64,000 nucleotides of DNA, from positions 1,664 through 65,663 of the forward strand of contig JACQVB010000022.1 in NCBI GenBank assembly GCA_016209985.1, written 5' to 3'. Source of the DNA: Gemmatimonadota bacterium. Its GTDB lineage: Bacteria; Gemmatimonadota; Gemmatimonadetes; Gemmatimonadales; GWC2-71-9. How positions within the stretch are numbered: position 1 is the stretch's first letter; each line of letters begins with the position of its first letter. Under the pieces are notes generated by a model that made no database searches, was not told the origin of the DNA, and worked only from the letters and a program-made list of their open reading frames with translations. Positions 14,980 through 28,549 of the stretch are shown piece after piece. The position numbers and the translations under genes were made by a program.

Positions 14980-15088
14980 AAAAGCGTGAAGAGTGAAGCG
15001 TGCAGAGTGAAGAGTAAAACGGCGCCGCCCCGATTGCTAACGGGTCTGCCTTACCCTTCCCTCTTCACTCTCAACTCTTCACGCTTTT
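14980..15088. repeat. Unit-repeat hairpin (GTGAAGA units) in a divergent intergenic region
   Basis: aaaagcgtgaagagtgaagcgtgcagagtgaagagta ... tacccttccctcttcactctcaactcttcacgctttt. The outer 15 nt are perfectly complementary. Confidence 0.7.
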
Positions 15089-15104
15089 GTGGTAATCTGA
15101 ATGC

Positions 15105-16367
15105 ATGGCTCCAAAGGTCATCGTTATTGGTGCCGGCTTCGGCGGCCTGCAGTGCGCCAAGAAGCTCGCCCAGAAGCCGGTCGATGTGCTGGTGATCGAC
15201 CGGAACAACTACCATCTGTTTACCCCGCTGCTGTATCAGGTCGCGAGCTCCCTGCTGGACCCGAGCGACATCGCCTACCCCGTCCGCGCCGCGTTTCGTC
15301 GCGCGCGCAACGTGCGTTTCCGGGTGGGCGAAGTGACCGGCATCGACTTCGCCCACCAAGAGGTGCGGACGGCCGACGGAGATGCTCTTCCTTACGACTA
15401 TCTGGTGATCGCGGCGGGCAGCACCGACAATTTTTTCGGCCTTACGTCCGTCGAGAATGTCGCGCTCGGCCTCAAGGATCTGCCGCACGCCGTCACCCTC
15501 AGGACCCACGTGATCCGCGCGTTTGAAACCGCCGCCCGGGAGATCGATCCCGCGGCCCGGGCAGCATGGCTGACGTTCGTGGTCGTCGGTGCGGGACCGA
15601 CCGGCGTGGAATACGCCGGTGCGCTGAGCGAGCTGATTCATCGGGTGCTGGCGCGCGACTACCCCGAGCTCGATCTCTCCGCGGTGCGCATCATCCTGAT
15701 CGAAGCCCAGCATCAGGTGCTTCCCGCCTTCCCGCCCCACCTCGGCCTGGATGCGCGGCGCCGGCTCGAGAAGATGGGGGTGGACGTCCGCCTCGGAGTT
15801 CGGGTACTGGATGCCACGGAGCGCGGCGTGCGCCTCTCCAGCGGAGAAGAGGTCGGGTGCCGGACGCTGGTGTGGGCCGCCGGAGTCAAGCCGGAAACCG
15901 TGGCACCGGGGGGCGTCCTGCCCCGGACGCGCTCGGGCCGGATGGCGGTGGACCAGACACTCCGCGTTCCCGGCCATCCCAACGTGTTCGCGATCGGTGA
16001 TATCGCGGGCGTGGTCCAGGATGGGCGCGAGCTCGCGATGATGTCGCCCCAGGCGATGCAAGAGGGGCGCTACGTCGCGCGTGCCATCGTGAAGCTCACG
16101 CGAGGCAAGCCCGTAGCGGCATTCCGGTATCGCGACAAGGGCATCATGGCCACCATCGGCCGCCATGCCGCGGTGGCGCAGGTGGGGAAGCTCTCCTTCA
16201 GGGGCCCGATCGGGTGGCTGGTATGGCTGGTGCTTCACCTCTACTACATCACGGGATTCCGCAACCGCTTGGTCGTCTTTTGGAGCTGGATGTGGAATTA
16301 CATCTTCTACGACCGGCCGATACGGCTGCTGACTGGAAGCACGGATCACACGGATACACGCGAGTGA
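15105..16367 (+). CDS. ndh: Type II NADH dehydrogenase (NDH-2)
   Basis: VIVIGAGFGGL and VVVGAGPTGVE dinucleotide folds, and AIGDIA, over ~420 aa. Confidence 0.85.
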   Translation: MAPKVIVIGAGFGGLQCAKKLAQKPVDVLVIDRNNYHLFTPLLYQVASSLLDPSDIAYPVRAAFRRARNVRFRVGEVTGIDFAHQEVRTADGDALPYDYLVIAAGSTDNFFGLTSVENVALGLKDLPHAVTLRTHVIRAFETAAREIDPAARAAWLTFVVVGAGPTGVEYAGALSELIHRVLARDYPELDLSAVRIILIEAQHQVLPAFPPHLGLDARRRLEKMGVDVRLGVRVLDATERGVRLSSGEEVGCRTLVWAAGVKPETVAPGGVLPRTRSGRMAVDQTLRVPGHPNVFAIGDIAGVVQDGRELAMMSPQAMQEGRYVARAIVKLTRGKPVAAFRYRDKGIMATIGRHAAVAQVGKLSFRGPIGWLVWLVLHLYYITGFRNRLVVFWSWMWNYIFYDRPIRLLTGSTDHTDTRE

Positions 16368-16378
16368 ACACGGATGCC
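16341..16378. repeat. Short tandem CACGGAT-type units overlapping the ndh 3' end
   Basis: gcacggatcacacggatacacgcgagtgaacacggat. It encodes the C-terminal ..TDHTDTRE. Confidence 0.4.
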
Positions 16379-16495
16379 TAGCACTAGTTCGTGCGGCCCT
16401 GGACGACCGCGCAATAGGCGCCCCGTGCCCTCGGCCTGCCCAGCCCAAGCCATGCGAAAAACTTACGCCTTGCAAGAAATCTGGTCCCACCGGCC

Positions 16496-19336
16496 TCAAC
16501 GGCCGCCGCCACCGGATCGGTCAACCAACGCTTCAGCGCACGGCGATTCAGCGCCACCCATTCCTCCGTTCTCGGGATGTCGGCCGCCAGGCGACCCGCG
16601 CTGACGAGTGCGTCGCCTCGCCGAGGGGTCCACGCCGAAGAATGCCTCGCGTGGGTTGTCGCAGGCGCCGGCGATGATCGCCGCGATCAGTTGCCAGCGC
16701 TCGGCGGGGGCAAGGGTCGTGTCACCCACGAAGCGCAGTCCCGTCGGCGATACCGGATCGGACATCAGGAAACGATCCCGGCGCCAGGAATTCGCCATTC
16801 GGTCACGAAGTTCCCGGGCGGTGCTCGCGAGATCGCTCGCTTCCACGATGAGATTCGCGTCATCCGTCAGTCGCCCGATATGGTCGATGTCGGGGCTTGC
16901 GGACTCGATGATTTCGATGCCGACGAGGCTTTGACCGACGAGCGGGGTGCGCAAGAAGTACCTGCCGGCGGCCAGATTCTCGCGCAATCGCAGCAAGGCA
17001 GTCGCTTTGTCTCCCCGTGCCAGCGCCTGCGCGGCGGCGGCCTGGTTCCGAGTGGCGAGTCCCTGCGCGCCCGCCAGGTAGTTCGCCGAGCTGGGATGGT
17101 TCTGCGCCCGTGGTAAGACCCAGGGATTGGATATGCCGGGAAACCCCGAGCGATATTGCCAGAGGACGGGGGGCGGTGCTGCCGCGAATCGTCGCCACAA
17201 TCTCAGCTGTAAACCGTCATCCATCGCCTCGCCCACGCCGCTGGTGTCGACGTCCCAGGCGGCAGGAAGAGAGTCGTTCCGCGTCCAGACGACGGTCAGG
17301 AGTCGGGCGGCGTCGAGATCCGGCCGCGCCGCCAACGGCAGGTGCGAAGCGGCGGACAGCAGCGAGTCAACCGCCTGCCAGCCGCGGGGACGCAGGCTGT
17401 CGACCGTTCGTGCCACGATCCAGGCCGACGCGCCCTTTCTCTCGTTCGCGGCGATGACTACTTCGAGCAACATCCCCGCTGCCAGGAGGGCCAAAGTGAA
17501 AACTGTCGCGCAGACCGCGATGGTGGGGATGATCCAGAGCACCGGTCGCGGAACCAGCCGAGGCTTGGTGACGGCCCGGCGCCCGACCAAGTCGAGCCAG
17601 CCCGTCACGAGTTCACTCTTGACGGCCGGGAGAGACTTCGCCTCGAAGAGGGATTCGCCTCGCCGGCCACGGCGACGAACTCTTGCTTCCGGGCGCGCGC
17701 AGGCGAGGATCGCGATCATGCCGACCAGCGCCGGTACTACCAGGCTCAGGACTTCGACAGTTGACACGAACGTGGTGCTGCCTCCTCCCGGGCCGCCGAG
17801 CCACTGCGCTGCCCGAAACCACAACCACGGGGCGGCGAGTGCGAAGGAGACGGTGCCCAGCGCGAACGCGGCGCGCAGATGACGGAGCCGGAGCAATTGC
17901 TGGCGCTCCCCGTCGCTTACCAGCGCGTATACTCCGGTGCGGTTCAGCAAGGCGCCCGTATCGGGGTGGCTGTCCAGGGCCACGTCGAGCAGCACCGGCC
18001 ATGGATAGCCGGACCGTCGGGCCCAATGCAGCCGGCTCGCCAACCGCCAGGCACGAAATGCCACGATGACCACTAGGACCAGGGCCACATCCACGATCAC
18101 CATGACGATGATGGCCCAGACATATACGGTATCCGTGTCGTCGGTCCGTACCGGAAGGGTCGCGTCGATGGCCGCCTTGAAGCCCTTCCAGATACCGGAG
18201 CCTTCCGGCTGGTTCCAGCAGCACAGCATGCTGGTGGTAGGCTGAACCAGAAGGTGAACGAACAGCACTAGTCCGAGAGCGGCGAGGAGTCCCAACGTCC
18301 GGAGGAGCCGCGCACCCAGGCCACGGAGCCGCTCCAGCCCGGGCGGGGGCCATTCAATGATCGTCCCGCCCGCCGGCAGGAGTGCGCGGGCGACATCGGC
18401 GGCGCTGGGACGCTGGAGCGGGTCCTTGGCCAGGCAGCGGTTGACCAGGTCCGCCAATTGCGGGTCCAGATCACCCCGCAGCGAGTGAAGGTCAGGCGGC
18501 GCCTCCTTCATGTGCGCCGCGATCAGACCCATGGCGCTGGATTCGATGAAGGGAGGCCTTCCGGTGGCGAGCTCGAACGCCACCACACCCAGACTGTAGA
18601 CATCGCTCCGGTCGGTGACCGCATCGCCCGCGGCCTGCTCCGGACTCATGTACATCGGCGTTCCGATGGAGGTGCCGGTGGCGGTGAGCTTCTCCTCGCC
18701 ACGCACTTTACGCTTCTCGAGCACCGCACTGATCCCAAAGTCGAGCACCACGGCTCGACCACTCTCCTGATCGAGCATGATGTTGCCGGGCTTGATGTCA
18801 CGGTGGACCAGACCGTGAGCGTGCGCGGTCGCGAGCGCGGACGCCACCTCACCGACGATGCGCCGGACGCGCGGCTCGGGGAGAGCCTCGCCCTCGTGTA
18901 GCACACCCTGCAGGGTGGGACCTTCGACGAACTGCATCACCAGATAGGGAACGCCGGACGGTGCCAACTCGCCCACCTGGTAGACGCTCACGACGTGCGG
19001 ATGCGAGACCGCCGCGGCGGCTTCGGCTTCACGGGTGAACCGTGCCCGCGCGACCGGATCCTGCGCCAACGCATGCGTCAGCACCTTGATCGCCACCGAG
19101 CGCTTGAGGGCCGGGTCTCGCCCGAGATAGACCGACCCCATGCCGCCGGCGCCCAGGGGCCGCAGCACATGGATTCCGGGCGCCAGTGCGGTGCGGAGCT
19201 CGGCCAGTGTTCCGTCACCATCGGGTGGGGGGGCAGTGGGGTCCGCCGCTATCAGCGGCATCCCGCACTGGCGGCAGAAGGTGTCCGTCGGGTCGAGTGG
19301 CGACTCACAGGATGAGCAACGAAGCCCGTCGGTCAT
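16496..19336 (-). CDS. Ser/Thr protein kinase with N-terminal zinc ribbon, TM segments and a long uncharacterised C-terminal region
   Basis: CSSCES..FCRQCG, VAIKVL, HRDIKPGNIML, DFG, SPEQ. Several hydrophobic segments follow, then ~350 aa without recognisable motifs. Confidence 0.85.
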   Translation of the reverse strand: MTDGLRCSSCESPLDPTDTFCRQCGMPLIAADPTAPPPDGDGTLAELRTALAPGIHVLRPLGAGGMGSVYLGRDPALKRSVAIKVLTHALAQDPVARARFTREAEAAAAVSHPHVVSVYQVGELAPSGVPYLVMQFVEGPTLQGVLHEGEALPEPRVRRIVGEVASALATAHAHGLVHRDIKPGNIMLDQESGRAVVLDFGISAVLEKRKVRGEEKLTATGTSIGTPMYMSPEQAAGDAVTDRSDVYSLGVVAFELATGRPPFIESSAMGLIAAHMKEAPPDLHSLRGDLDPQLADLVNRCLAKDPLQRPSAADVARALLPAGGTIIEWPPPGLERLRGLGARLLRTLGLLAALGLVLFVHLLVQPTTSMLCCWNQPEGSGIWKGFKAAIDATLPVRTDDTDTVYVWAIIVMVIVDVALVLVVIVAFRAWRLASRLHWARRSGYPWPVLLDVALDSHPDTGALLNRTGVYALVSDGERQQLLRLRHLRAAFALGTVSFALAAPWLWFRAAQWLGGPGGGSTTFVSTVEVLSLVVPALVGMIAILACARPEARVRRRGRRGESLFEAKSLPAVKSELVTGWLDLVGRRAVTKPRLVPRPVLWIIPTIAVCATVFTLALLAAGMLLEVVIAANERKGASAWIVARTVDSLRPRGWQAVDSLLSAASHLPLAARPDLDAARLLTVVWTRNDSLPAAWDVDTSGVGEAMDDGLQLRLWRRFAAAPPPVLWQYRSGFPGISNPWVLPRAQNHPSSANYLAGAQGLATRNQAAAAQALARGDKATALLRLRENLAAGRYFLRTPLVGQSLVGIEIIESASPDIDHIGRLTDDANLIVEASDLASTARELRDRMANSWRRDRFLMSDPVSPTGLRFVGDTTLAPAERWQLIAAIIAGACDNPREAFFGVDPSARRRTRQRGSPGGRHPENGGMGGAESPCAEALVDRSGGGGR

Positions 19337-19943: not shown

Positions 19944-20027
19944 GAGCAGGTGGTCGGTGGGACGGGGACCGAGGGGGTGCGTCATGGGCAAGAAAATGGG
20001 ATTTGGCGGGGGCGGCGTCCAGCGCCG
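19944..20027. repeat. Direct repeat copy A (~85 bp): second copy of the sigma-factor 5' region
   Basis: By-eye alignment to 22438-22520 gives roughly 85% identity. On the minus strand it encodes MTHPLGPRPTDHLL. Confidence 0.7.
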
Positions 20028-20044
20028 CCGATGCTTCAGCCCGC

Positions 20045-21955
20045 CTAGCTGCGGCGCTTTCCTTTGGGATGAAACATCGCGTCGATGTTTCCCTCAACCA
20101 TCCGAATCAGCTTCGTCTGTCGTTCTTTGGTGAGCCCTGAGGCCACAGCCACGTCGGCAATATTCGTTCGGATGCGATCGCCCAGGTCCTTCGCTCGATC
20201 CAGCGCTTCGGCGCGACTCCATCCAAACCGGCGAGCCAGGACAGCAAAATCCTCGGTACGCAGATTGTTCTGACGCCCATTCAGGGTGAGCGCAAATCCG
20301 TCGCCAGGAATTACGAGTCGAGTCGCGACAAGATCGTAGAGGGGCGCATAACGGGTGCCCGTTTGGACTGGGGGCCTTCCGAGACGGCCGGGTTGGATGC
20401 TACGAGCAACCGAGATGTTCTTGGCGTGCAGATCCCCGTTCCCAATCAGCCACGAGTACAGCACGTGGTCGAAATGCAACTTCAAGTCCGCTGGTGACAG
20501 TGCCATTCCGACGAGCGCCGTCAGTACTTGCTCGTGAGATGGATCGTATTTGTCCTCACGGCGAATTCCCAACACCGATGCGAGATCCTCAACAAGCAAC
20601 AACTCGTCCACATCAAGGCTCGTGGGCAGATCGAACCGTTCAACCAGAAGCGCCGGCGATTGGAGCAGGCTCCCTTCCTGAAACTGCACCCTCCTCACGG
20701 CCGGAACCGGTAGTGCAACGCGTCTCGCGAGTTCCATCATCGCCCACTCGTTTTCCACGAGCTGCGGGTATTCCCGCGAAGCGAACTTGAGAATGTGGGT
20801 AGTCGAGTGGTGTAGATCGCCGAGTCCAAGCCTCACGCCGGAGCTGAGCATGTCGAGATGCACCGGCAGCTTGGGCTGGATTCCGGAGAGCCGTGTCGCG
20901 CCCCGCCGGCGAAGCTCTAACCACAGTTCGGTTGTATCGGGGTCTTTCCCGATCGTCTCGGAAACGTCCAAGACGGCGGCCGAGTCAGTCGTCAATCGCT
21001 CGAGGGGATCCTCGATCGTATCAAGCACGAGCGTGGAAGCATCGAAGTCCTGCGGCCTGAGGGTAAGGTTACTGAGATATTTCTGGGTGGTCTTAAGAAT
21101 CGCGTAAGAATCTTCGCGCGAAATCTTGTGAGTCGCTCGAAGCTGCGCTTCAGCCCAACCCTCAGGCAACAGGTTATCGAGGAACGGCGGCAGCTCGCGC
21201 CCTTCGTATGCAGGGATCCGGCTTCGTGGCAAACCGCTCAGCTCGATGTTCCACGCTGGATCATAGGTGAAACGGAATTCCCCGTGCACCAGAGCCTCCA
21301 AGCGCCCGACTCTCCAGTGGTAGAAGAAGAGATCGAGACTTTCGCCTCGAGGCAGCGGTGTAGTTCCCGCCCGCGCCAGGGATTCTTGCACACGGACATA
21401 TCGCTCATAGGCGTTCGCCAGCTTGTTGCGGGCTGCAAACGCCGACGCGCGTTCCCAGTCAGCGCTCGGCAGGTTTCCGATGAGTGTACGGACCGCCTCT
21501 TCCGGCAACCCTCGCTCGGGTTGCCGCGCATCTCGAGCAAGCACCTCGAACACCGTTTGCAGGGGAGAACTAACCTGGACGCTGGCAGGCGTGCCCTCGG
21601 CGCTAATGCGCGGAGCCACCAGAGTCCGCAATCGAAGCGTGACCGTTTCCGGATGGGGCAGAGCGCGTAAGCGCTTGATGGTCAGCCCGGGAAGTTTTAA
21701 GGGAGTTCGCTTCCCATGACCAGATATGAAGACTACGCCCTGCGTTGGTTGAAGAGTCGCGGCAGTGCTGTGCGACACGTACCAATCCGGGTATGACGCG
21801 CCGAGAATGGCAAGAAAATGTTCACCCACGATGCTTTCTAGAGACCGGTCGAATTCGTCGGTGTAAATGCCGTGGGCTACCCGCCTGATCGCCTTGCGAT
21901 CGGCTCCGGTGTTGAGTGCTTCGGTGTCGGAGCGTGTTTGTGGGATGTAGAGCAT
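20045..21955 (-). CDS. HipA-family Ser/Thr kinase (toxin-like) with ~210-aa N-terminal extension
   Basis: RLSGIQPKLP, GNGDLHAKNISV and PLYDLV are HipA hallmarks in the C-terminal ~420 aa. At 636 aa it is well above the ~440 aa of canonical HipA. No adjacent hipB. Confidence 0.8.
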   Translation of the reverse strand: MLYIPQTRSDTEALNTGADRKAIRRVAHGIYTDEFDRSLESIVGEHFLAILGASYPDWYVSHSTAATLQPTQGVVFISGHGKRTPLKLPGLTIKRLRALPHPETVTLRLRTLVAPRISAEGTPASVQVSSPLQTVFEVLARDARQPERGLPEEAVRTLIGNLPSADWERASAFAARNKLANAYERYVRVQESLARAGTTPLPRGESLDLFFYHWRVGRLEALVHGEFRFTYDPAWNIELSGLPRSRIPAYEGRELPPFLDNLLPEGWAEAQLRATHKISREDSYAILKTTQKYLSNLTLRPQDFDASTLVLDTIEDPLERLTTDSAAVLDVSETIGKDPDTTELWLELRRRGATRLSGIQPKLPVHLDMLSSGVRLGLGDLHHSTTHILKFASREYPQLVENEWAMMELARRVALPVPAVRRVQFQEGSLLQSPALLVERFDLPTSLDVDELLLVEDLASVLGIRREDKYDPSHEQVLTALVGMALSPADLKLHFDHVLYSWLIGNGDLHAKNISVARSIQPGRLGRPPVQTGTRYAPLYDLVATRLVIPGDGFALTLNGRQNNLRTEDFAVLARRFGWSRAEALDRAKDLGDRIRTNIADVAVASGLTKERQTKLIRMVEGNIDAMFHPKGKRRS

Positions 21956-21969
21956 GAAAGTGCTACTTT

Positions 21970-22059
21970 AGTCAATAAGTTATCGTACATATTAACCATA
22001 GTAGCATATCCGTCAAGGCCTCAATGCTAGTTGGGTCAACAAGTACACAGACTTATTGA
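21970..22059. promoter_or_regulatory. AT-rich leader with three GTCAAYAAGT motifs (candidate operator) upstream of the hipA-like gene
   Basis: gtcaataagt at 21970-21979, gtcaacaagt at 22034-22043, and inverted acttattgac at 22050-22059. The latter two form a 10-6-10 inverted repeat. Confidence 0.4.
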
Positions 22060-22080
22060 CCAAAATCGCACTTTACCTCT

Positions 22081-22480
22081 CTATGGTCTCGAGTGCGGTG
22101 TCACCGGGATCGGGAACCTGGAGTCCGGCGTGCTTCGCACCAGCCTGAACCGTTCGGTGTCCATCGTGGAAGATCCCTCGATCCCCAGCATCGTGATCTT
22201 CTTCTTTTCGAACCGGGTGAGCGCCACGTTCCTGGCGATTTTCGCGAGCCACGCGCCGAAGGAGAACCGGGGATCGTACTTGACAAGAGCGCGGTGGGCG
22301 CGGCGGAAGGTTTCCTGCGCCGCGGAGTCGGCGACATCCCACTGACCGACGATGCGCATCACCAGCTCGATCTGTTCGTGGTAGCGGTCGTAGAGCTTGC
22401 GAAACGCGAGCTCATCGTCCTGCAGCGCCAGTTTGACGAGCTGCTGGTCGGTCGGACGCGGACCAAGGGGGGTGCGTCAC
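22081..22480 (-). pseudogene. ECF sigma-70 family gene, frameshifted near the start and lacking region 4
   Basis: ..TDQQLVKLALQDDELAFRKLYDRYHEQI...AQETFRRAHRALVKYDPRFSFGAWLAKIARN is sigma region 2. The GTG at 22480 is out of frame because of a G6 run (22467-22472), where repeat copy A has G5. The ORF ends at the AT-rich junction with no region 4. Confidence 0.65.
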
Positions 22481-22520
22481 GGGCAGAAAACGGGATGTGG
22501 CGGGGCCCGCGTCCAGCACA
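22438..22520. repeat. Direct repeat copy B (~85 bp), the native 5' end of the sigma-factor gene
   Basis: Aligns with 19944-20027. Confidence 0.7.
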
Positions 22521-22598
22521 GCACCCCCAATTCGCTCGCGTTCGTGATGCCGATGTATCGCCTCGAGGTAGGCGAAGAGCTTTCCCTGGGAATACCTG

Positions 22599-23738
22599 CT
22601 AATCATTCTCCTCTGGCCAGGACGCCGGCAGGCCAAGCACTTCGCCTGGACTTCTTCCAGCCGCGACCCTCAGGTGCCCATCAACCACCCTACTGAAGTC
22701 GAAGGGTAACACTCCATCAGGCAGCTCTTTCTTTGCCCAGGGATTGAGGAATACCGCTATCCTGCTCCGGCTGACGCTCCAGGGTTGGACCGAGGTGACG
22801 AGAACTGCGCTTATGCGGGTGTTTATCGGGCCAGTACTACCCATGAAGAAGCCATCGCGCGCGCGGCTCGGGCGCCCCTCTCTGGTGTCAACGTCAATAA
22901 CAACTTGCTCAGACCCGAACAGCGCCCCGATCACGTCATCACGGTCAGCCCCCCATTTTGTCTGAGTGTTGATGGCCAAGACGACAGGAACCTCGGCAGG
23001 ACCGAACTTCTTTGCCTTCTCCGCAAGACGGTCGCGGATGGACTCCTGGTCGCGAACCAAGCCTCCTGCTACTGGGTAGATGCCGATGGAGCGGACGCCC
23101 GGCTTCCCCCGCGCAGCATTCTTGGGAATGGGCCGAATGACGAGCCGGACCCTTTGGTCTTCCAAGACCCACTTGGGCAGGGTCTCGAGGTCACATTGCT
23201 GAAGTTCGGCGAGGCTCTCGTAGTCCGCCATCTCTATCTGGCTTGTGACGAACTGAGTAATCGCCCGGATGGACGGCTGCTGTGGACCCTTGATCTCGAA
23301 TTCGACTACTTCGAGGAAGTAGTCCGGTGAGGGGACCTGATTGATCGCATCCAAGATGGCGCCGACCATTGCCCTCCTGCCACGGTCCGCGTGCGACGCT
23401 CCACCCACGACTGACGCCTCGACTAGGAACTCGCTCTCGCCGCAACAGCCGAAATCGGGGCGCCCGCCCGCACGTTCAGGCTCAACTTCTGGAGCAAGTC
23501 TCAGGACATGGAATAGTTCGTGGAGGTAGAGCTCGAAAAAGGCTGATGAGAAATCATCGGCCACCATTCTCCGCAACAGCGCCGACTGTTTCGATGCGGG
23601 GTAGCGGTCGAACCAGCTCTGGAGCTCACGCCTGATCGCTTCGCAGCCGGGCTTGGCGCAACGGTCAAGGAATGCGTACGTCGATTCGGTGTGTCTGCTG
23701 GGGCTTGGGTCTGTCCTTGGAACGGCAGAGAAGAGCAT
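22599..23738 (-). CDS. Hypothetical protein (380 aa), last gene of the fic-hsdM-hsdS operon
   Basis: ATG at 23738 lies 13 nt after the hsdS stop. No Walker motif. Contains RPDF-x10-LVEAS, weakly reminiscent of a PD-(D/E)xK core. No family recognised. Confidence 0.6.
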   Translation of the reverse strand: MLFSAVPRTDPSPSRHTESTYAFLDRCAKPGCEAIRRELQSWFDRYPASKQSALLRRMVADDFSSAFFELYLHELFHVLRLAPEVEPERAGGRPDFGCCGESEFLVEASVVGGASHADRGRRAMVGAILDAINQVPSPDYFLEVVEFEIKGPQQPSIRAITQFVTSQIEMADYESLAELQQCDLETLPKWVLEDQRVRLVIRPIPKNAARGKPGVRSIGIYPVAGGLVRDQESIRDRLAEKAKKFGPAEVPVVLAINTQTKWGADRDDVIGALFGSEQVVIDVDTREGRPSRARDGFFMGSTGPINTRISAVLVTSVQPWSVSRSRIAVFLNPWAKKELPDGVLPFDFSRVVDGHLRVAAGRSPGEVLGLPASWPEEND

Positions 23739-23751
23739 AAGCACGAGAGAA

Positions 23752-24885
23752 TCAGACCCCAAACGCCCGCTGCGCCAGCGAGTCGAAGAGCTGATCAGCG
23801 GACTCCTCAGCGCCCCTGAGCTCGGAGCGCGTTTTCTCGCACGCTCGCACAATGTCTGAAAATCGCTTCTGGAGTCGGAGCGGGGGAACTGGTATCCGAA
23901 CTTCTCTGGCACTCCCGATATTGAAATGAGTCTGCACAGCACCGGTGGAGCCAGCAATGGAGTCTGCGTCCCCTAGGCGAGTGTTAAGAACCTCGCAAAG
24001 GTACTGCGGTTCGATTCGAGTGCCGCACGTCATCACGATTAGGTCTGCACAGTTTGCTTCCTTCAATGATTCCGGAATCACTGCAGTGACGCCCGGCGCG
24101 CCCGTTCTAACCGACACCACGTCATTGGGCAGTAATCGAGACTTGGAAATGCTTGCGTGGAACTCTGGCGAGACAAACATCAACTCGTCGAGTTGAATGC
24201 GCCCCCGTCTAACGTTCAATGACCGAAGCATTGACACACCTGTAGACTGATACTTATCGGTGAGAGGCCCTACAAATCCGACCGTTACTCTTGAGCAAAG
24301 GTTCCCCAGTAGGTCGGTTCCCCATTCCCTTTCATTCTTCACCGGATCCCCAAACATCTCCAAGAACTCCGAGCGCAAGAAATCATCCAGCAACCCCAGG
24401 CTCTCCCGCCGCTTCCGCCGCACCGCATCCGCCTTGCCCAATACCGCCGCGATCCGCTGCTGCTCGGCGAGGGGCGGAAGGGCGAGTGGCAAAGACTCCA
24501 CGGCCTCTCGCGTCACCTGCTTGAATGTCGATCCCCGCGCGCGACCTTCAAGAGTCGACCTGACTGAGGCAAGCCAGTGCCACAAGTAACCCTTGTCCAG
24601 ACGGGCAGTATGCACCCTCAATGCAGCCACTCCACGCCCCAGACAATACCGACGATCAGACCAGTTTCGCTCACCGACCGTCGCGCGAACGCACAGGAGG
24701 ATGTCGCCAACCTCGGACATCCTGCTCGGTTGCGTTGTAAAGCGCTTGGGCTGCGGCTCCAAGGTTCCAAAATCACCGGCGCCGGCAAGGAGCGGGAAAC
24801 CGTCGCCCGAAGAGTTGTAAGACTCACCTGGGGGTGCTTGGCCCATCACGACGTCGCAAACGGCCCCGAGCGTCGCCACGTTCAC
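23752..24885 (-). CDS. hsdS: Type I restriction-modification specificity subunit
   Basis: Two target-recognition halves, each followed by a conserved helix (LPPLAEQQRIAAVLGKAD..., PVPPLRLQKRFSDIV...). Overlaps the hsdM stop. Confidence 0.9.
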   Translation of the reverse strand: MNVATLGAVCDVVMGQAPPGESYNSSGDGFPLLAGAGDFGTLEPQPKRFTTQPSRMSEVGDILLCVRATVGERNWSDRRYCLGRGVAALRVHTARLDKGYLWHWLASVRSTLEGRARGSTFKQVTREAVESLPLALPPLAEQQRIAAVLGKADAVRRKRRESLGLLDDFLRSEFLEMFGDPVKNEREWGTDLLGNLCSRVTVGFVGPLTDKYQSTGVSMLRSLNVRRGRIQLDELMFVSPEFHASISKSRLLPNDVVSVRTGAPGVTAVIPESLKEANCADLIVMTCGTRIEPQYLCEVLNTRLGDADSIAGSTGAVQTHFNIGSAREVRIPVPPLRLQKRFSDIVRACEKTRSELRGAEESADQLFDSLAQRAFGV

Positions 24886-26435
24886 CGCAGCAACTCCTCC
24901 AGAGTGTCCAAGTCCCCCCTTATCTGCCCTTCTGTTTCTCTGAGTCTCTTGAGGATCTCGCTAGGTGGTTCGTGCTTGGATTCCGCGTAGGCCGTCTCTT
25001 TGTACCGATTGATCGCCAGGTCGTATTTGTTCTCCCGAATCTCCTCCACCGGCACAAAAAAGGCCTTCTCTGTCCGGTCCGTATCCCCCTTTGGATCCCT
25101 CGCCTTCCACCTCGCAATCACATCCGGAATATCATTCTCGGCCACCTTCTCCCGCTTGTCGTCCAGCGAGTAGCCGTCGGCCTGCATGTCGTAGTACCAG
25201 ACGCGCTCAGTCTTGCCGCCTTTGACGAAGATCAGCGCCGCGGTGCTCACGCCGGCGTAGGGCTTGAACACGCCCGCCGGCATCTTCACGATGCCCTGAA
25301 GCTCGCACTCCTCGATCAGCATCTTCCGCAGGTCCCGACGCGCATTGCTCGAACCGAACAGCACCCCGTCCGGCACGATTACGCCGGCCCGTCCGCCGAG
25401 GCGCAACAGATTGATCATCCGGTTCACAAACAGCAGCTCCGTCTTGGTCGTCTTGAGCCGCAAGTCCTCGTTGAGGTCACCCTTGTCGATGCTGCCTTTG
25501 AAGGGCGGATTCGCGAGGACGACGTCGTAGCGGTCCTTTTCGGTGTAGCTCTTGGAGAGCGTATCCTTGTAGCCAAGCTGCGGGTGGTCGATGCCATGGA
25601 GCAGGAGGTTCATCAGGCCGATCCGCACCATCGTGGTGTCGAAGTCGTAACCGAAAAACGTCTGCTCCTTGAGCGCCTTCCATTGCCGCGGGTCGCCGAG
25701 GTTGTCTCCCACCAGACCCCGTTCGATCCCGTCCTCGCCCATGAAGCGATGCCCCTTGCTGGTGTGCTGGGTGAGGATGTGCTGAAAGGCTCCGAGCAGA
25801 AATCCCCCGGTGCCGCAGGCCGGATCGCAGATCCCCTCTCCCAGCCTGGGGTCAACCAGCGAGACGATCATCTGAATGATGTGCCTCGGCGTGCGGAACT
25901 GGCCGTTCTTCCCGGCCGAAGCGATTTCGGAGAGCAGGTGTTCGTAGAGATCACCCTGGACATCCTGGAACCCCTGCCCCGCCTGCTGCTCCCGCTCGAT
26001 CTCGGCGTAGATCTCGTCAATGATTCCGACCGCCTCGACCAGCAGCGACGCCTTGGGGATGATGAAAACGGCATCCTGCATGTACTGCGTGAATATCTGG
26101 CCGCCGTTCTTGAGGGTCTTGATGAACGGAAAGACGTTGTCGCGGACGTGGTCCAGCATTTCCTCGGCGGGCAGGTGGCGAAACTTGCCCCAGCGCAGCT
26201 CCTCGCGCGAACGCCTGGCACCTTTCCTGGTCTCGTATTTCCCGGCGAAGAGGGACTTGAACTCTCTGCCCGTGAACTCGGCGTCCCCTCGTTCCTTCTC
26301 ATCGAGCGCGTCCAGCCGGCGCATGAAGAGGAGATAGCTGATCTGCTCGATGGCGGTGAGCGGATTGGCGATGCCACCGGACCAGAACTTGTCCCATAGC
26401 GCATCGGTTCTTGACCGCAGGATTCCGCTCAGCAT
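24882..26435 (-). CDS. hsdM: Type I restriction-modification N6-adenine DNA methyltransferase subunit
   Basis: N-terminal HsdM_N-like region, SAM motif DPACGTGGFL, catalytic motif NPPF. Confidence 0.9.
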   Translation of the reverse strand: MLSGILRSRTDALWDKFWSGGIANPLTAIEQISYLLFMRRLDALDEKERGDAEFTGREFKSLFAGKYETRKGARRSREELRWGKFRHLPAEEMLDHVRDNVFPFIKTLKNGGQIFTQYMQDAVFIIPKASLLVEAVGIIDEIYAEIEREQQAGQGFQDVQGDLYEHLLSEIASAGKNGQFRTPRHIIQMIVSLVDPRLGEGICDPACGTGGFLLGAFQHILTQHTSKGHRFMGEDGIERGLVGDNLGDPRQWKALKEQTFFGYDFDTTMVRIGLMNLLLHGIDHPQLGYKDTLSKSYTEKDRYDVVLANPPFKGSIDKGDLNEDLRLKTTKTELLFVNRMINLLRLGGRAGVIVPDGVLFGSSNARRDLRKMLIEECELQGIVKMPAGVFKPYAGVSTAALIFVKGGKTERVWYYDMQADGYSLDDKREKVAENDIPDVIARWKARDPKGDTDRTEKAFFVPVEEIRENKYDLAINRYKETAYAESKHEPPSEILKRLRETEGQIRGDLDTLEELLR

Positions 26436-26445
26436 CCGATCTCCT

Positions 26446-27495
26446 TCAAGCCTTTACCGGTACCCATTTGGCTCCTGGACCTCGCCCGAGCTGCTGAAGC
26501 TGGCCTGCGTTCCTCAATCCGCGGAGGACGCGGCGCACCATTTCCCGGCTCACGCCGGGACATTCCGCCTCGATGTCAGCGATGCCAAACGCGCGGGTGC
26601 GACGGGCCACCGCTTGCTCCACCAGATCGGTTTTGGCCCCGCGGCCCGCTCGAATCGTGCCGACTCTGGCTTCGAACTCCTTGTACGCGGCGAGCACCAC
26701 CCCCCAGAAATACGTGATCCAGGGAATCACATCGTGTCGGCCCTGATGCCACCCAACCGAGCTGGCTTCTAGGGTCTCGTAGTAGCTCTCCTTCGACTCC
26801 TCGAAGATGCGCTCGAGACTGATGTAGCGCCCCACCTCGTACTGAAAGTGGTAGAGCAACAGGAGGGTCAGCAGCCGAGCCATCCGGCCGTTCCCATCAC
26901 TGAAGGGGTGAATGCACAGGAAGTCGAGCACGGCGAGCGGGACCAGGACCAGCGGCTCACGGTTCCGGTCCAGCGCCCGGGCGTAGCGCTCCACCAATTG
27001 CTCCATCGCGCCCGGAGTGGAGACCGGTGCTACCGGCGTGAAACGAATCCGGTGCAACGATCCATCCGGCGTTCGCTCCACAATCTCGTTTTGCGTGCTC
27101 TTCCACCGCCCGCCGGGAGTGGGGAGGTAGCGATAGAGGAGTTGATGGAGTTGCAAAACCACGTTGATACTGAAATGCATGTCGCCATGGGCTTCATGGA
27201 TCAGGACAAGGGCATCGCGATACCCCGCGATCTCCTGCTCCGAACGATTGGCGGCCGCCGTGGGCTTCTTGACCACCGCTTCCACCCGATCCCGTGGCGC
27301 CGTGACACCCTCCAGCCGATTGGAGGACTCGGCGGATTCAACGATCGCGCGCTCGAGGAGTCCGGACAGCACGTCCGGGGTTTGCTTCCGGAAAAGCTCC
27401 TGCTTACCCCGGAACTCCCGCAACGCGCCGAGCGTGGAGGCGTGGTCGGCGGTTAACCGGAGACCATCGAGATATGAATCCGCCAGCGAGTGCAT
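26446..27495 (-). CDS. fic: Fic/DOC family protein with intrinsic inhibitory motif and C-terminal winged-helix-like tail
   Basis: Fic motif HPFSDGNGRMAR. N-terminal SNRLEG fits the (S/T)xxxE(G/N) inhibitory helix. The C-terminal ..REMVRRVLRGLRNAGQLQQLGRGPGAKW looks HTH-like. Confidence 0.9.
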   Translation of the reverse strand: MHSLADSYLDGLRLTADHASTLGALREFRGKQELFRKQTPDVLSGLLERAIVESAESSNRLEGVTAPRDRVEAVVKKPTAAANRSEQEIAGYRDALVLIHEAHGDMHFSINVVLQLHQLLYRYLPTPGGRWKSTQNEIVERTPDGSLHRIRFTPVAPVSTPGAMEQLVERYARALDRNREPLVLVPLAVLDFLCIHPFSDGNGRMARLLTLLLLYHFQYEVGRYISLERIFEESKESYYETLEASSVGWHQGRHDVIPWITYFWGVVLAAYKEFEARVGTIRAGRGAKTDLVEQAVARRTRAFGIADIEAECPGVSREMVRRVLRGLRNAGQLQQLGRGPGAKWVPVKA

Positions 27496-27530
27496 CAGTA
27501 CGACTCAGAACAAAAAGGGGTAATGAAGTA

Positions 27531-27584
27531 TAATAGTGGTAATAACATCGCATTATTACCACTATTCGTCAAACTATTACCACT
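27531..27584. promoter_or_regulatory. Candidate operator/promoter upstream of fic: 14-bp perfect inverted repeat plus a third half-site
   Basis: aatagtggtaataa-N8-ttattaccactatt, then actattaccact 7 nt further. The segment is AT-rich and lies 36-90 nt upstream of the fic ATG. Confidence 0.45.
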
Positions 27585-27586
27585 TC

Positions 27587-28197
27587 TCACGCCACCAGCC
27601 GGCCGGTGAATCTCAGGATGTCTTCGATGTCGGAGGCCGAGAAGAGGCCTCGTGCCCCCTTGGGATGAAGCTGGGTGAACGGCGGGTCAACCAGGTTCTT
27701 CCGGTTTACCTCGCCTCTCTGGAGCAGGAACGTTCGCAGGGTTTGGAGAAAGCGGAGCTGGAGCGAGGAATAGTTCGAGTGCTCAGCCATGAAGCCCTCG
27801 AACTCGCGCGTCACGAAGGTTGACCACCGTTCCAGCGGCTGCACGCCCCGGACGTGCCTGATGAGCTGGACGAAGCTCGCCTGGCGAACGTCGTAGACCT
27901 TCGGGCAACCAGGTTCACACCCAACGGCAATTCGGAGACTTGTTCGACGATGGAAAGGCGGAGCGCTTCGACGGCGTCGCGATTCGCGGCCAGCAGTGCC
28001 GTTCCCAGCTCCACGATGTCGGTTTCGAAGCGTAGGGCCTTGAAATCCGCGTCCGACTTGGCCCGCATGATCGGCGCGATGGTCTGGCGGAGAAGTGCCA
28101 GATCACGGCGCCTAAGGCGGGACCAGAAACCATCCTCGCGGGCGACCGCCAAGTCGCCCTGTCGTTCCAGGAAGCAGCACGAGGAAAGGCCCGACAC
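27587..28197 (-). pseudogene. hsdR: C-terminal remnant of the type I restriction subunit HsdR (EcoEI_R_C-like), also frameshifted
   Basis: Two ORF pieces in different frames. ..LRQTIAPIMRAKSDADFKALRFETDIVELG.. and ..SSLQLRFLQTLRTFLLQRGEVNRKNLVDPPFTQLHPKGARGLF.. match the HsdR C-terminal domain pattern. The helicase and nuclease parts are absent. Confidence 0.7.
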
Positions 28198-28549
28198 TGC
28201 AGAGGAAAATGTGAAATTCGAGCCAGTACTTGAGCTTGCCTGCCCCCCGCAGGAGGTGCAGTCGCTTGCGTACGCTATAGAGGAAAACGCCGGCGATGAT
28301 CAGCGAGGTTCCGATGATGCCGTAGCGGAGACCGAACGTGCCGGCCGGCCGGAACCGGGCGTACATGGGCGAAAACGGCCGCTGATCCAGCGGAAGCAGG
28401 TAATACTCGATGCCCAAGCCGAGACCGAAGCCTGCGAGCGCGAGGCCCAGCGAGATGAGCACGATTCGAAAGATCCGTCCGCTGGCCCTGGGGGAAGGCG
28501 GCTCAACCCCGCTGGGCAACTCGATTGGTGAAGCGGCCGGTGAGGGCAC
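28112..28549 (-). pseudogene. Membrane protein gene, apparently 3'-truncated where it abuts the hsdR remnant
   Basis: Three predicted TM helices end in ..KYWLEFHIFLCSVGPFLVLL (about 28172). The frame then runs into hsdR-derived sequence and stops. Confidence 0.45.

Follow-up and report, generated by a model that had tools for sequence, protein, structure and literature searches.

A PD-T7-5-related gene from a large unannotated family at the 3' end of a fic-hsdM-hsdS cassette in a Gemmatimonadota bacterium

A type I restriction-modification (R-M) cassette in which the restriction gene is a remnant raises the question of what the intact gene lying directly behind it is for. We examined such a gene, here called gene X, in a stretch of 64,000 nucleotides from a Gemmatimonadota bacterium (the window; contig JACQVB010000022.1 of assembly GCA_016209985.1, positions 1,664 to 65,663). 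Gene X encodes 379 amino acids (aa) plus a stop codon. Its ATG is at position 23738 of the window and the TGA of hsdS is at 23752-23754, leaving a gap of 13 nt, so that the first-pass annotation, which had placed an unannotated gene right after hsdS on the same strand, is confirmed by the open reading frame (ORF) and by the stop and start positions. The start is also backed by the homologues, in which a conserved N-terminal stretch, xLFDxxxR..P, aligns from residue 2. We consider it fairly probable that gene X encodes a defence nuclease which belongs to the PD-T7-5 superfamily, acts on its own and is carried as cargo at the 3' end of the fic-hsdM-hsdS cassette.

Homology of gene X to PD-T7-5

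Gene X is clearly coding and conserved, given its homologue clusters and an AlphaFold2 model of high confidence. A word-indexed search with the protein returned 73 homologue clusters, and the family to which it belongs (the X family) comprises 3,119 representatives of clusters at 50% identity at E<=1e-3, 588 of them at E<=1e-30. Neither the protein alone nor a profile of 66 family members matched anything in Pfam, NCBIfam or the sequences of the PDB. PADLOC was the only library that recognised gene X, through its models for PD-T7-5 (E=3.5e-5, residues 62-113) and PD-T7-1 (E=0.044). The PD-T7-5 model (PDLC04110) matched 66/66 family members, with a best E of 3.3e-13, and the PD-T7-1 model (PDLC04073) matched 51/66, with a best E of 5e-8. 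The PD-T7-5 match is partial; in the better-scoring members it pairs residues ~30-138 with profile positions 16-114 of 346.

A published table places PD-T7-1 and PD-T7-5 among the PD(D/E)XK nuclease systems that came out of the Escherichia coli screen of Vassallo et al. (PMC10952713). According to the preprint on that screen, PD-T7-5 came from a functional selection in E. coli, 11 systems showed distant PD(D/E)XK similarity, seven of these gave direct immunity, and five single-protein systems, not named individually in that statement, had only a putative DNase domain (Vassallo et al. 2022, bioRxiv 10.1101/2022.05.12.491691). PADLOC lists PD-T7-5 as a single-protein model.

For a comparison over the whole length we took true PD-T7-5 homologues out of Pseudomonadota genomes and aligned them; one matches the entire model at E=1.4e-103. 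Comparison of the X family with this alignment in hhalign gave 98.4% probability and E=6.4e-15 over 242 columns, joining residues 28-379 of gene X to residues 18-323 of a 342-aa PD-T7-5 homologue (L096); pairwise BLASTP was weak, at 23% identity over 119 aa. By profile-profile comparison the two families are colinear over their full length, which shows gene X to be a full-length distant homologue of PD-T7-5.

The conserved columns point the same way. Those invariant among the PD-T7-5 homologues are W-E in helix 1, P-D-F, E-A, K followed by Y, the A of an 'AIA/AVN' strand, the S of 'SAV', and N..A in 'HNPxA'. In alignments of up to 81 sequences, the X family has R36, A66, E69, L70, E107, K241, A255, L273 and P333 as invariant positions and H73, E74, P94, D95, F96, A108, Y245, S310 and A335 among the near-invariant ones, and the invariant or near-invariant columns that coincide with those of PD-T7-5 are E69, P94, D95, F96, E107, A108, K241, Y245, A255, S310, P333 and A335. 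Gene X itself retains the residues invariant in both families (E69, P94-D95-F96, E107-A108, K241, SAV and NPxA); at position 245 it has Phe. Both families thus share a (W/F)E helix 1, PDF, E-A-(T/S) with no lysine at +2, a downstream K...Y helix, A-h-N, ALxG, SAV and NPxA. They are also alike in consisting of single genes of comparable size (343 aa for PD-T7-5 and 379 aa for gene X), and neither has a Pfam model.

The families also differ. The X family has an insert of ~90-100 aa between the strand of E107 and the helix of K241 (roughly residues 120-225), which carries a conserved RGKPGVRPIG loop. The PD-T7-5 hidden Markov model covers only the N-terminal ~50-100 residues of X-family members, at E 1e-4 to 1e-13, and the coverage rules of standard annotation pipelines would probably miss the family. 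Its taxonomic range also differs, being mainly Chloroflexota, Acidobacteriota and Actinomycetota. PD-T7-1 shares with gene X only a nuclease core of ~55-100 residues; the match falls in the middle of its profile (positions ~120-219 of 452), and there is no colinearity outside the core.

AlphaFold2, run with the family alignment, gave a single-chain model with a mean pLDDT of 93.8 and a pTM of 0.90. The predicted elements run in the order H63-78, E83-85, E96-99, E103-111, H116-133 and E140-149, where H denotes helix and E strand. Alpha-beta-beta-beta-alpha-beta is the element order of restriction-endonuclease-like cores, and the modelled order in gene X fits such a core. Residues 63-76 (FSSAFFELYLHELF) span the helix AFFELYLHE with E69, H73 and E74, and the other core elements are P94-D95-F96 and E107-A108-S109. 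The first-pass annotation had described these motifs as RPDF-x10-LVEAS; both are present, at residues 93-96 and 105-109, and the spacer between them counts 8 residues instead of 10. It had also proposed a PD-(D/E)xK-like core without the lysine. An E...PD...E triad on the predicted core is indeed what gene X has in common with canonical PD-(D/E)xK folds, whereas the lysine at +2 after the second acidic residue is replaced. The signature (E)...(P)D...(D/E)xK is incomplete in gene X, with E69, D95 and E107, which are invariant in 81 sequences, present and Ser109 in place of Lys (Thr in the family consensus). Because PD-T7-5 homologues also read E-A-T, the lack of the lysine characterises, on these alignments, the whole superfamily and does not reflect decay. 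K241 aligns with the invariant K140 of the PD-T7-5 homologues and is a candidate for a relocated catalytic lysine.

Structural searches were less telling. With the full model, Foldseek reached a best E of 0.027 against the PDB, with no nuclease match at E<=0.001, and against BFVD it returned 60-70-residue matches to 'restriction enzyme' or nuclease models (probability 0.8-0.9, E>=0.027). The weak local matches were to I-Bth0305I, SfsA, HhaI, Exo5, NGO0050 and phage 'restriction enzyme', nuclease and PDDEXK models. When residues 1-165 were refolded alone, strand 140-149 was lost and the best Foldseek E was 1.5; since this strand disappears from the isolated domain, the core sheet of the model seems to extend into the remainder of the protein. 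The predicted nuclease assignment therefore draws on three lines: the relationship of the profiles to PD-T7-5 and PD-T7-1, the three invariant acidic residues, and the order in which helices and strands follow one another.

Other known families gave no match. As the first-pass annotation had noted for NTPase motifs, the gene X protein has no P-loop or NTPase match; nor did it match, in Pfam, NCBIfam or PADLOC, any HsdR domain (motor, HSDR_N or C-terminal assembly) or PrrC/RloC. Pfam matches to Mrr, McrB/AAA, GmrSD (DUF262/DUF1524), SRA or EVE were absent at E<=1 from the 66 X-family members.

Distribution and genomic neighbourhoods of the X family

The X family is patchily distributed, occurring in 153 of about 185,000 GTDB species genomes. 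Its hosts are mostly Chloroflexota, Acidobacteriota and Actinomycetota, and it is also found in Verrucomicrobiota, Gemmatimonadota, Pseudomonadota and one metagenome-assembled genome (MAG) of Methanosarcinales. The homologue from this archaeal MAG (L009) and that from a Clostridia MAG (L011) are sisters with full support and short branches, a closeness that suggests either recent transfer between domains or a binning error. A phage origin of the family was considered and rejected, as tblastn gave 0 matches in 50,697 phage records. Homologues do exist on plasmids, and all those in RefSeq plasmids are annotated as 'hypothetical protein'.

The closest homologue (61% identity, locus L001) lies in the arrangement hsdR-fic-hsdM-hsdS-X with an intact HsdR of 942 aa. 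Between the window and this locus, HsdM is 81%, Fic 67% and HsdS 33% identical. Because the same cassette is found there with a full HsdR, the cassette is, judged from this comparison, ancestral, hsdR having merely been lost in the window. The homologues next in identity (49-52%) have no hsdS beside them. The first-pass annotation had seen in gene X a candidate substitute effector that uses the M-S module now that HsdR is gone; the intact HsdR of the sister cassette and the position of these next homologues argue against that idea, and the replacement of HsdR was rejected as our preferred explanation on account of the sister cassette.

Over the family as a whole, ~85-90% of 82 non-redundant loci have no R-M neighbour. 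We clustered ~1,000 neighbour ORFs from 87 loci, called by a simple ORF picker, and found no partner gene conserved next to X; the largest cluster, methyltransferase- or HsdR-like, came from only 9 loci. When Pfam domains were counted in neighbouring proteins of >=250 aa within 2.5 kb (n=201), the commonest family was N6_Mtase (8/201), followed by Eco57I, HSDR_N, Type_ISP_C, TaqI_C, integrases, AAA_21/OLD-TOPRIM and DUF499 with DUF1156. PRTase-CE was also among the neighbours, and most neighbours were ordinary metabolic genes. Methyltransferase neighbours are ~40-fold enriched against a background assumed, without a matched control, to be ~0.1% of genes. The association of homologues with R-M that the first-pass annotation had proposed to check is seen in the commonest neighbour family, yet the great majority of loci lack it. 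On a maximum-likelihood tree of 83 sequences, adjacency to R-M genes was gained independently at least 7-8 times; the loci concerned are given in Table 1.

Several neighbourhoods deserve description. In L062 (249-3221), an ORF of 990 aa begins as the N-terminal half of HsdM (HsdM_N and an N6_Mtase cut short) and continues as the C-terminal half of HsdR (Helicase_C and EcoEI_R_C), and an intact X homologue lies 1.2 kb downstream of this deletion-fused, decayed type I system, in parallel to the window. In the type IIG ORF directly upstream of the X homologue in L031 (4247-7861), the methyltransferase segments are separated by an IS200-like Y1 transposase domain (residues 581-681), representing either an insertion that is read through or a fusion. 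In L010 (4806-7961), a 1051-aa AAA-ATPase with a C-terminal PRTase-CE domain precedes the X homologue on the same strand with a gap of 34 nt.

On the Acinetobacter baumannii plasmid pWM98-2 (L109, 3843-8161), a complete type III cyclic oligonucleotide-based antiphage signalling system (CBASS) with cyclase, HORMA, TRIP13 and NucC is present, and the X homologue starts 4 nt later. We rejected the X homologue as effector of this CBASS, because the operon already has the NucC effector. Genes for an integrase and a zeta toxin come after the X homologue on this plasmid. A Pseudomonas aeruginosa plasmid has an X homologue beside a HEPN protein and insertion sequence (IS) elements.

Autonomous nuclease or partner of the methyltransferase

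In the autonomous nuclease that we favour, E69, D95 and E107 would bind the metal of a PD-(D/E)xK-type active site, and K241 would stand in for the lysine absent from the second position after E107. The enzyme may cleave the nucleic acid of invaders or, as an abortive response, the DNA of its host, acting on a cue that it would sense itself. Gene X would be co-transcribed with hsdMS and yet need no HsdM, HsdS or HsdR, and its co-location with the hsd genes could provide layered defence and joint transfer. Autonomy is suggested because HsdR is intact in the sister cassette, the homologues of 49-52% identity lack hsdS, most loci are without R-M genes, and R-M adjacency arose repeatedly; it is also suggested because an intact X is kept beside the hsdM'-'hsdR fusion of L062 and trails a CBASS on pWM98-2. 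A defence role is likely because of the N6_Mtase, type IIG, ISP, integrase and OLD neighbours, the occurrence on plasmids, the absence from 40 relatives of the host, and the low-GC island in which the gene lies. The first-pass suggestion of a defence component is plausible.

There is precedent for such an arrangement. TgvAB of the Vibrio cholerae island VPI-2 is, as gene X would be, a self-contained second defence module in an hsd operon, and like gene X it occurs mostly elsewhere; it lies inside a type I cluster and is 17 times commoner outside such clusters (PMC11411939). PrrC in EcoprrI is likewise a second defence module in an hsd operon, resembling gene X in position only (PMC12707154). 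Neither has a sequence relationship to X, PrrC being an ABC-ATPase-type anticodon nuclease and TgvAB belonging to the GmrSD family, and both sit between hsd genes whereas gene X follows hsdS at the end of the operon.

Several points weigh against an autonomous defence nuclease. A published mechanism for PD-T7-5 itself was not found. With Foldseek, neither the full model nor its N-terminal part had a significant structural match (best E of 0.027, 0.027 and 1.5), and the canonical lysine is absent from the gene X protein. Housekeeping genes surround many homologues and some clades track taxonomy, which would fit a non-defence cellular role too. In addition, the 13-nt coupling to hsdS and the methyltransferase enrichment, which is relative to an assumed background, leave room for a functional link to methyltransferases.

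The most direct form of such a link would have X dock on HsdM2S as an alternative effector and cleave at or near unmethylated targets in place of the lost HsdR. The short distance to hsdS, the decay of hsdR while M, S and X are intact, the same pattern of decayed type I genes and intact X in L062, and the top rank of methyltransferases among neighbour families all speak for it. We regard it as very unlikely, however, since the same cassette occurs with an intact HsdR, ~85-90% of homologues have no methyltransferase nearby, and the partner systems are unrelated in type (type I, type IIG, ISP/PglX-like, CBASS); the gene X protein is also unlike HsdR or any motor or NTPase, its homologue PD-T7-5 is a one-protein PADLOC model, and the window genome has other full-length HsdR genes, 36% identical to that of the cassette. 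A guardian role like that of PrrC, in which X is silenced by the R-M complex or by normal methylation and fires as an abortive-infection nuclease once the type I system is inhibited by an anti-restriction protein of a phage, would account for the independent recurrence of X at the 3' end of R-M operons and has a model in prrC, which lies within the type IC locus ecoprrI and which T4 Stp activates (PMC12707154). This too seems highly improbable, because most family members are not beside any R-M system, X lacks homology to PrrC or RloC, and it persists without HsdR in the window and in L062, where nothing is left to guard. A looser version, in which the X family is a methylation-aware or R-M-coupled nuclease serving as a back-up effector that reads the state of a neighbouring methyltransferase system, is unlikely in our estimation. 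Candidate cues include target DNA left unmethylated, an M2S complex that has stalled or been inhibited, and the loss of HsdR. If true, it would explain at least 7 recruitments to the 3' end of type I, IIG and ISP/PglX-like operons, as well as the survival of X after HsdR in two decayed loci.

Two further readings were considered. X might be a modification-dependent, type IV-like nuclease that cuts foreign-modified DNA and so complements a type I system blocked by modification. This would suit a single-protein nuclease without a methyltransferase of its own, and TgvAB provides a precedent with a ratio of occurrence outside type I clusters similar to that of X (PMC11411939). It nevertheless remains an unlikely explanation, as no modified-base reader is recognisable and no match to Mrr, McrB, GmrSD, SRA or EVE was found in the family. 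The DNA of phage T7, moreover, is unmodified. It was on T7 that PD-T7-5 was selected (bioRxiv 10.1101/2022.05.12.491691), which also counts against this reading. Alternatively, X might not be a defence protein at all, instead processing cellular or mobile-element DNA (in repair, recombination or element maintenance) and standing beside hsdS by chance. The many homologues beside housekeeping genes (ValRS, SHMT/GcvT, Maf/TatD, acyl-CoA dehydrogenases) and the Actinomycetota, Acidobacteriota and Dehalococcoidia clades that roughly track taxonomy agree with this. We nonetheless find it quite unlikely, given the patchy distribution among species genomes and absence from the 40 close relatives, the lack of a conserved partner or neighbourhood, the enrichment of defence and mobile neighbours, and the homology of X to a member of a validated defence family.

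Whichever of these roles applies, a large unannotated family (~3,100 clusters at 50% identity) is now linked to an experimentally validated anti-phage protein, and the PD-T7-5 superfamily proves to have members far outside Proteobacteria, in Chloroflexota, Acidobacteriota and Actinomycetota as well as in at least one archaeal MAG. The shared candidate catalytic set (E, PD, E and a distant K) can be targeted by mutagenesis, and structural or biochemical studies of PD-T7-5-type proteins can draw on a wide choice of diverse orthologues in the X family. The neighbourhoods also show a recurring pattern of single-protein effectors at the 3' end of other defence operons, namely type I and type IIG R-M systems and CBASS. 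To the specialist the finding is useful and will come as no surprise, since hsd operons with defence cargo and PD-(D/E)xK effectors of distant kinship are both familiar themes.

The operon and island around gene X

The genes fic, hsdM, hsdS and X are joined by a 4-nt overlap (between hsdM and hsdS) or by gaps of 10-13 nt (Table 1). Upstream, only ~600 nt match the intact HsdR of L001, corresponding to its residues 620-714 and 839-942, which are C-terminal pieces. The earlier description of hsdR as a remnant is therefore upheld, and the gene is defunct, its nuclease and most of its motor being gone.

Table 1. Gene X, its operon and island in the window, and the loci at which the X family is linked to R-M genes
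Feature	Position	Strand	Evidence or remark
Gene X, PD-T7-5 superfamily, unnamed sister family	22599..23738	-	ORF and translation
Predicted PD-(D/E)xK-like core, residues 62-113	23400..23555	-	Region matched by PD-T7-5 and PD-T7-1 models
Codon of invariant K241, candidate relocated catalytic lysine	23016..23018	-	K-x3-(Y/F) motif, end of helix 230-242
hsdS, type I specificity subunit, full length	23752..24885	-	Pfam Methylase_S; PADLOC Specificity_I residues 3-375, E=2e-79
hsdM, type I N6-adenine methyltransferase, full length	24882..26435	-	Pfam N6_Mtase and HsdM_N; PADLOC MTase_I, E=7e-176
fic, SoFic-like, full length, first intact operon gene	26446..27495	-	Pfam Fic, E=1e-14; PADLOC SoFic, E=9e-37
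hsdR remnant, ~600 nt	27590..28185	-	tblastn with L001 HsdR and search of the window's own genome
Lower-GC accessory island carrying the cassette	20000..28500	.	Composition profile
R-M-linked loci: window, L001			Type I
R-M-linked locus: L004			HsdR-like gene and fused M-S gene
R-M-linked locus: L062			Decayed hsdM'-'hsdR fusion
R-M-linked loci: L031, L043			Type IIG enzymes directly upstream of X homologue
R-M-linked loci: L029, L044, L053, L071			ISP/PglX-like methyltransferases

The island has a GC content of 0.58-0.62, against 0.65-0.68 in its flanks, and gene X was absent from 40/40 genomes of the same genus, family and order. The fic-hsdM-hsdS cassette was probably acquired horizontally. 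Elsewhere in the window's genome (G000), contigs C134 (26212-28959) and C193 (3923-5749) have at least two further HsdR-like genes, one of which codes for 1130 aa and shares 36% identity with the cassette type; the genome therefore carries other type I systems.

Other genes of the window were also noted. Between gene X and a HipA-like gene, at 22100-22440 (-), lies an unannotated fragment resembling region 2 of ECF sigma-70 factors, recognised by eye from its translation (..DELAFRKLYDRYHEQI..AQETFRRAH..FGAWLAKIARN..), which is a probable gene remnant within the island. The HipA-like gene at 20045-21955 (-), in the same low-GC island, encodes a 636-aa kinase (Couple_hipA and HipA_C) whose N-terminal extension of ~200 aa gives weak AbiEi-like matches. 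Further along, 15051-19336 (-) contains a gene for a 946-aa zinc-ribbon Ser/Thr kinase, the kinase domain of which strongly matches the PADLOC models PD-T4-6 and mad6. This gene overlaps by 4 nt the gene for a 482-aa protein without a family match, and the two may form a two-gene module.

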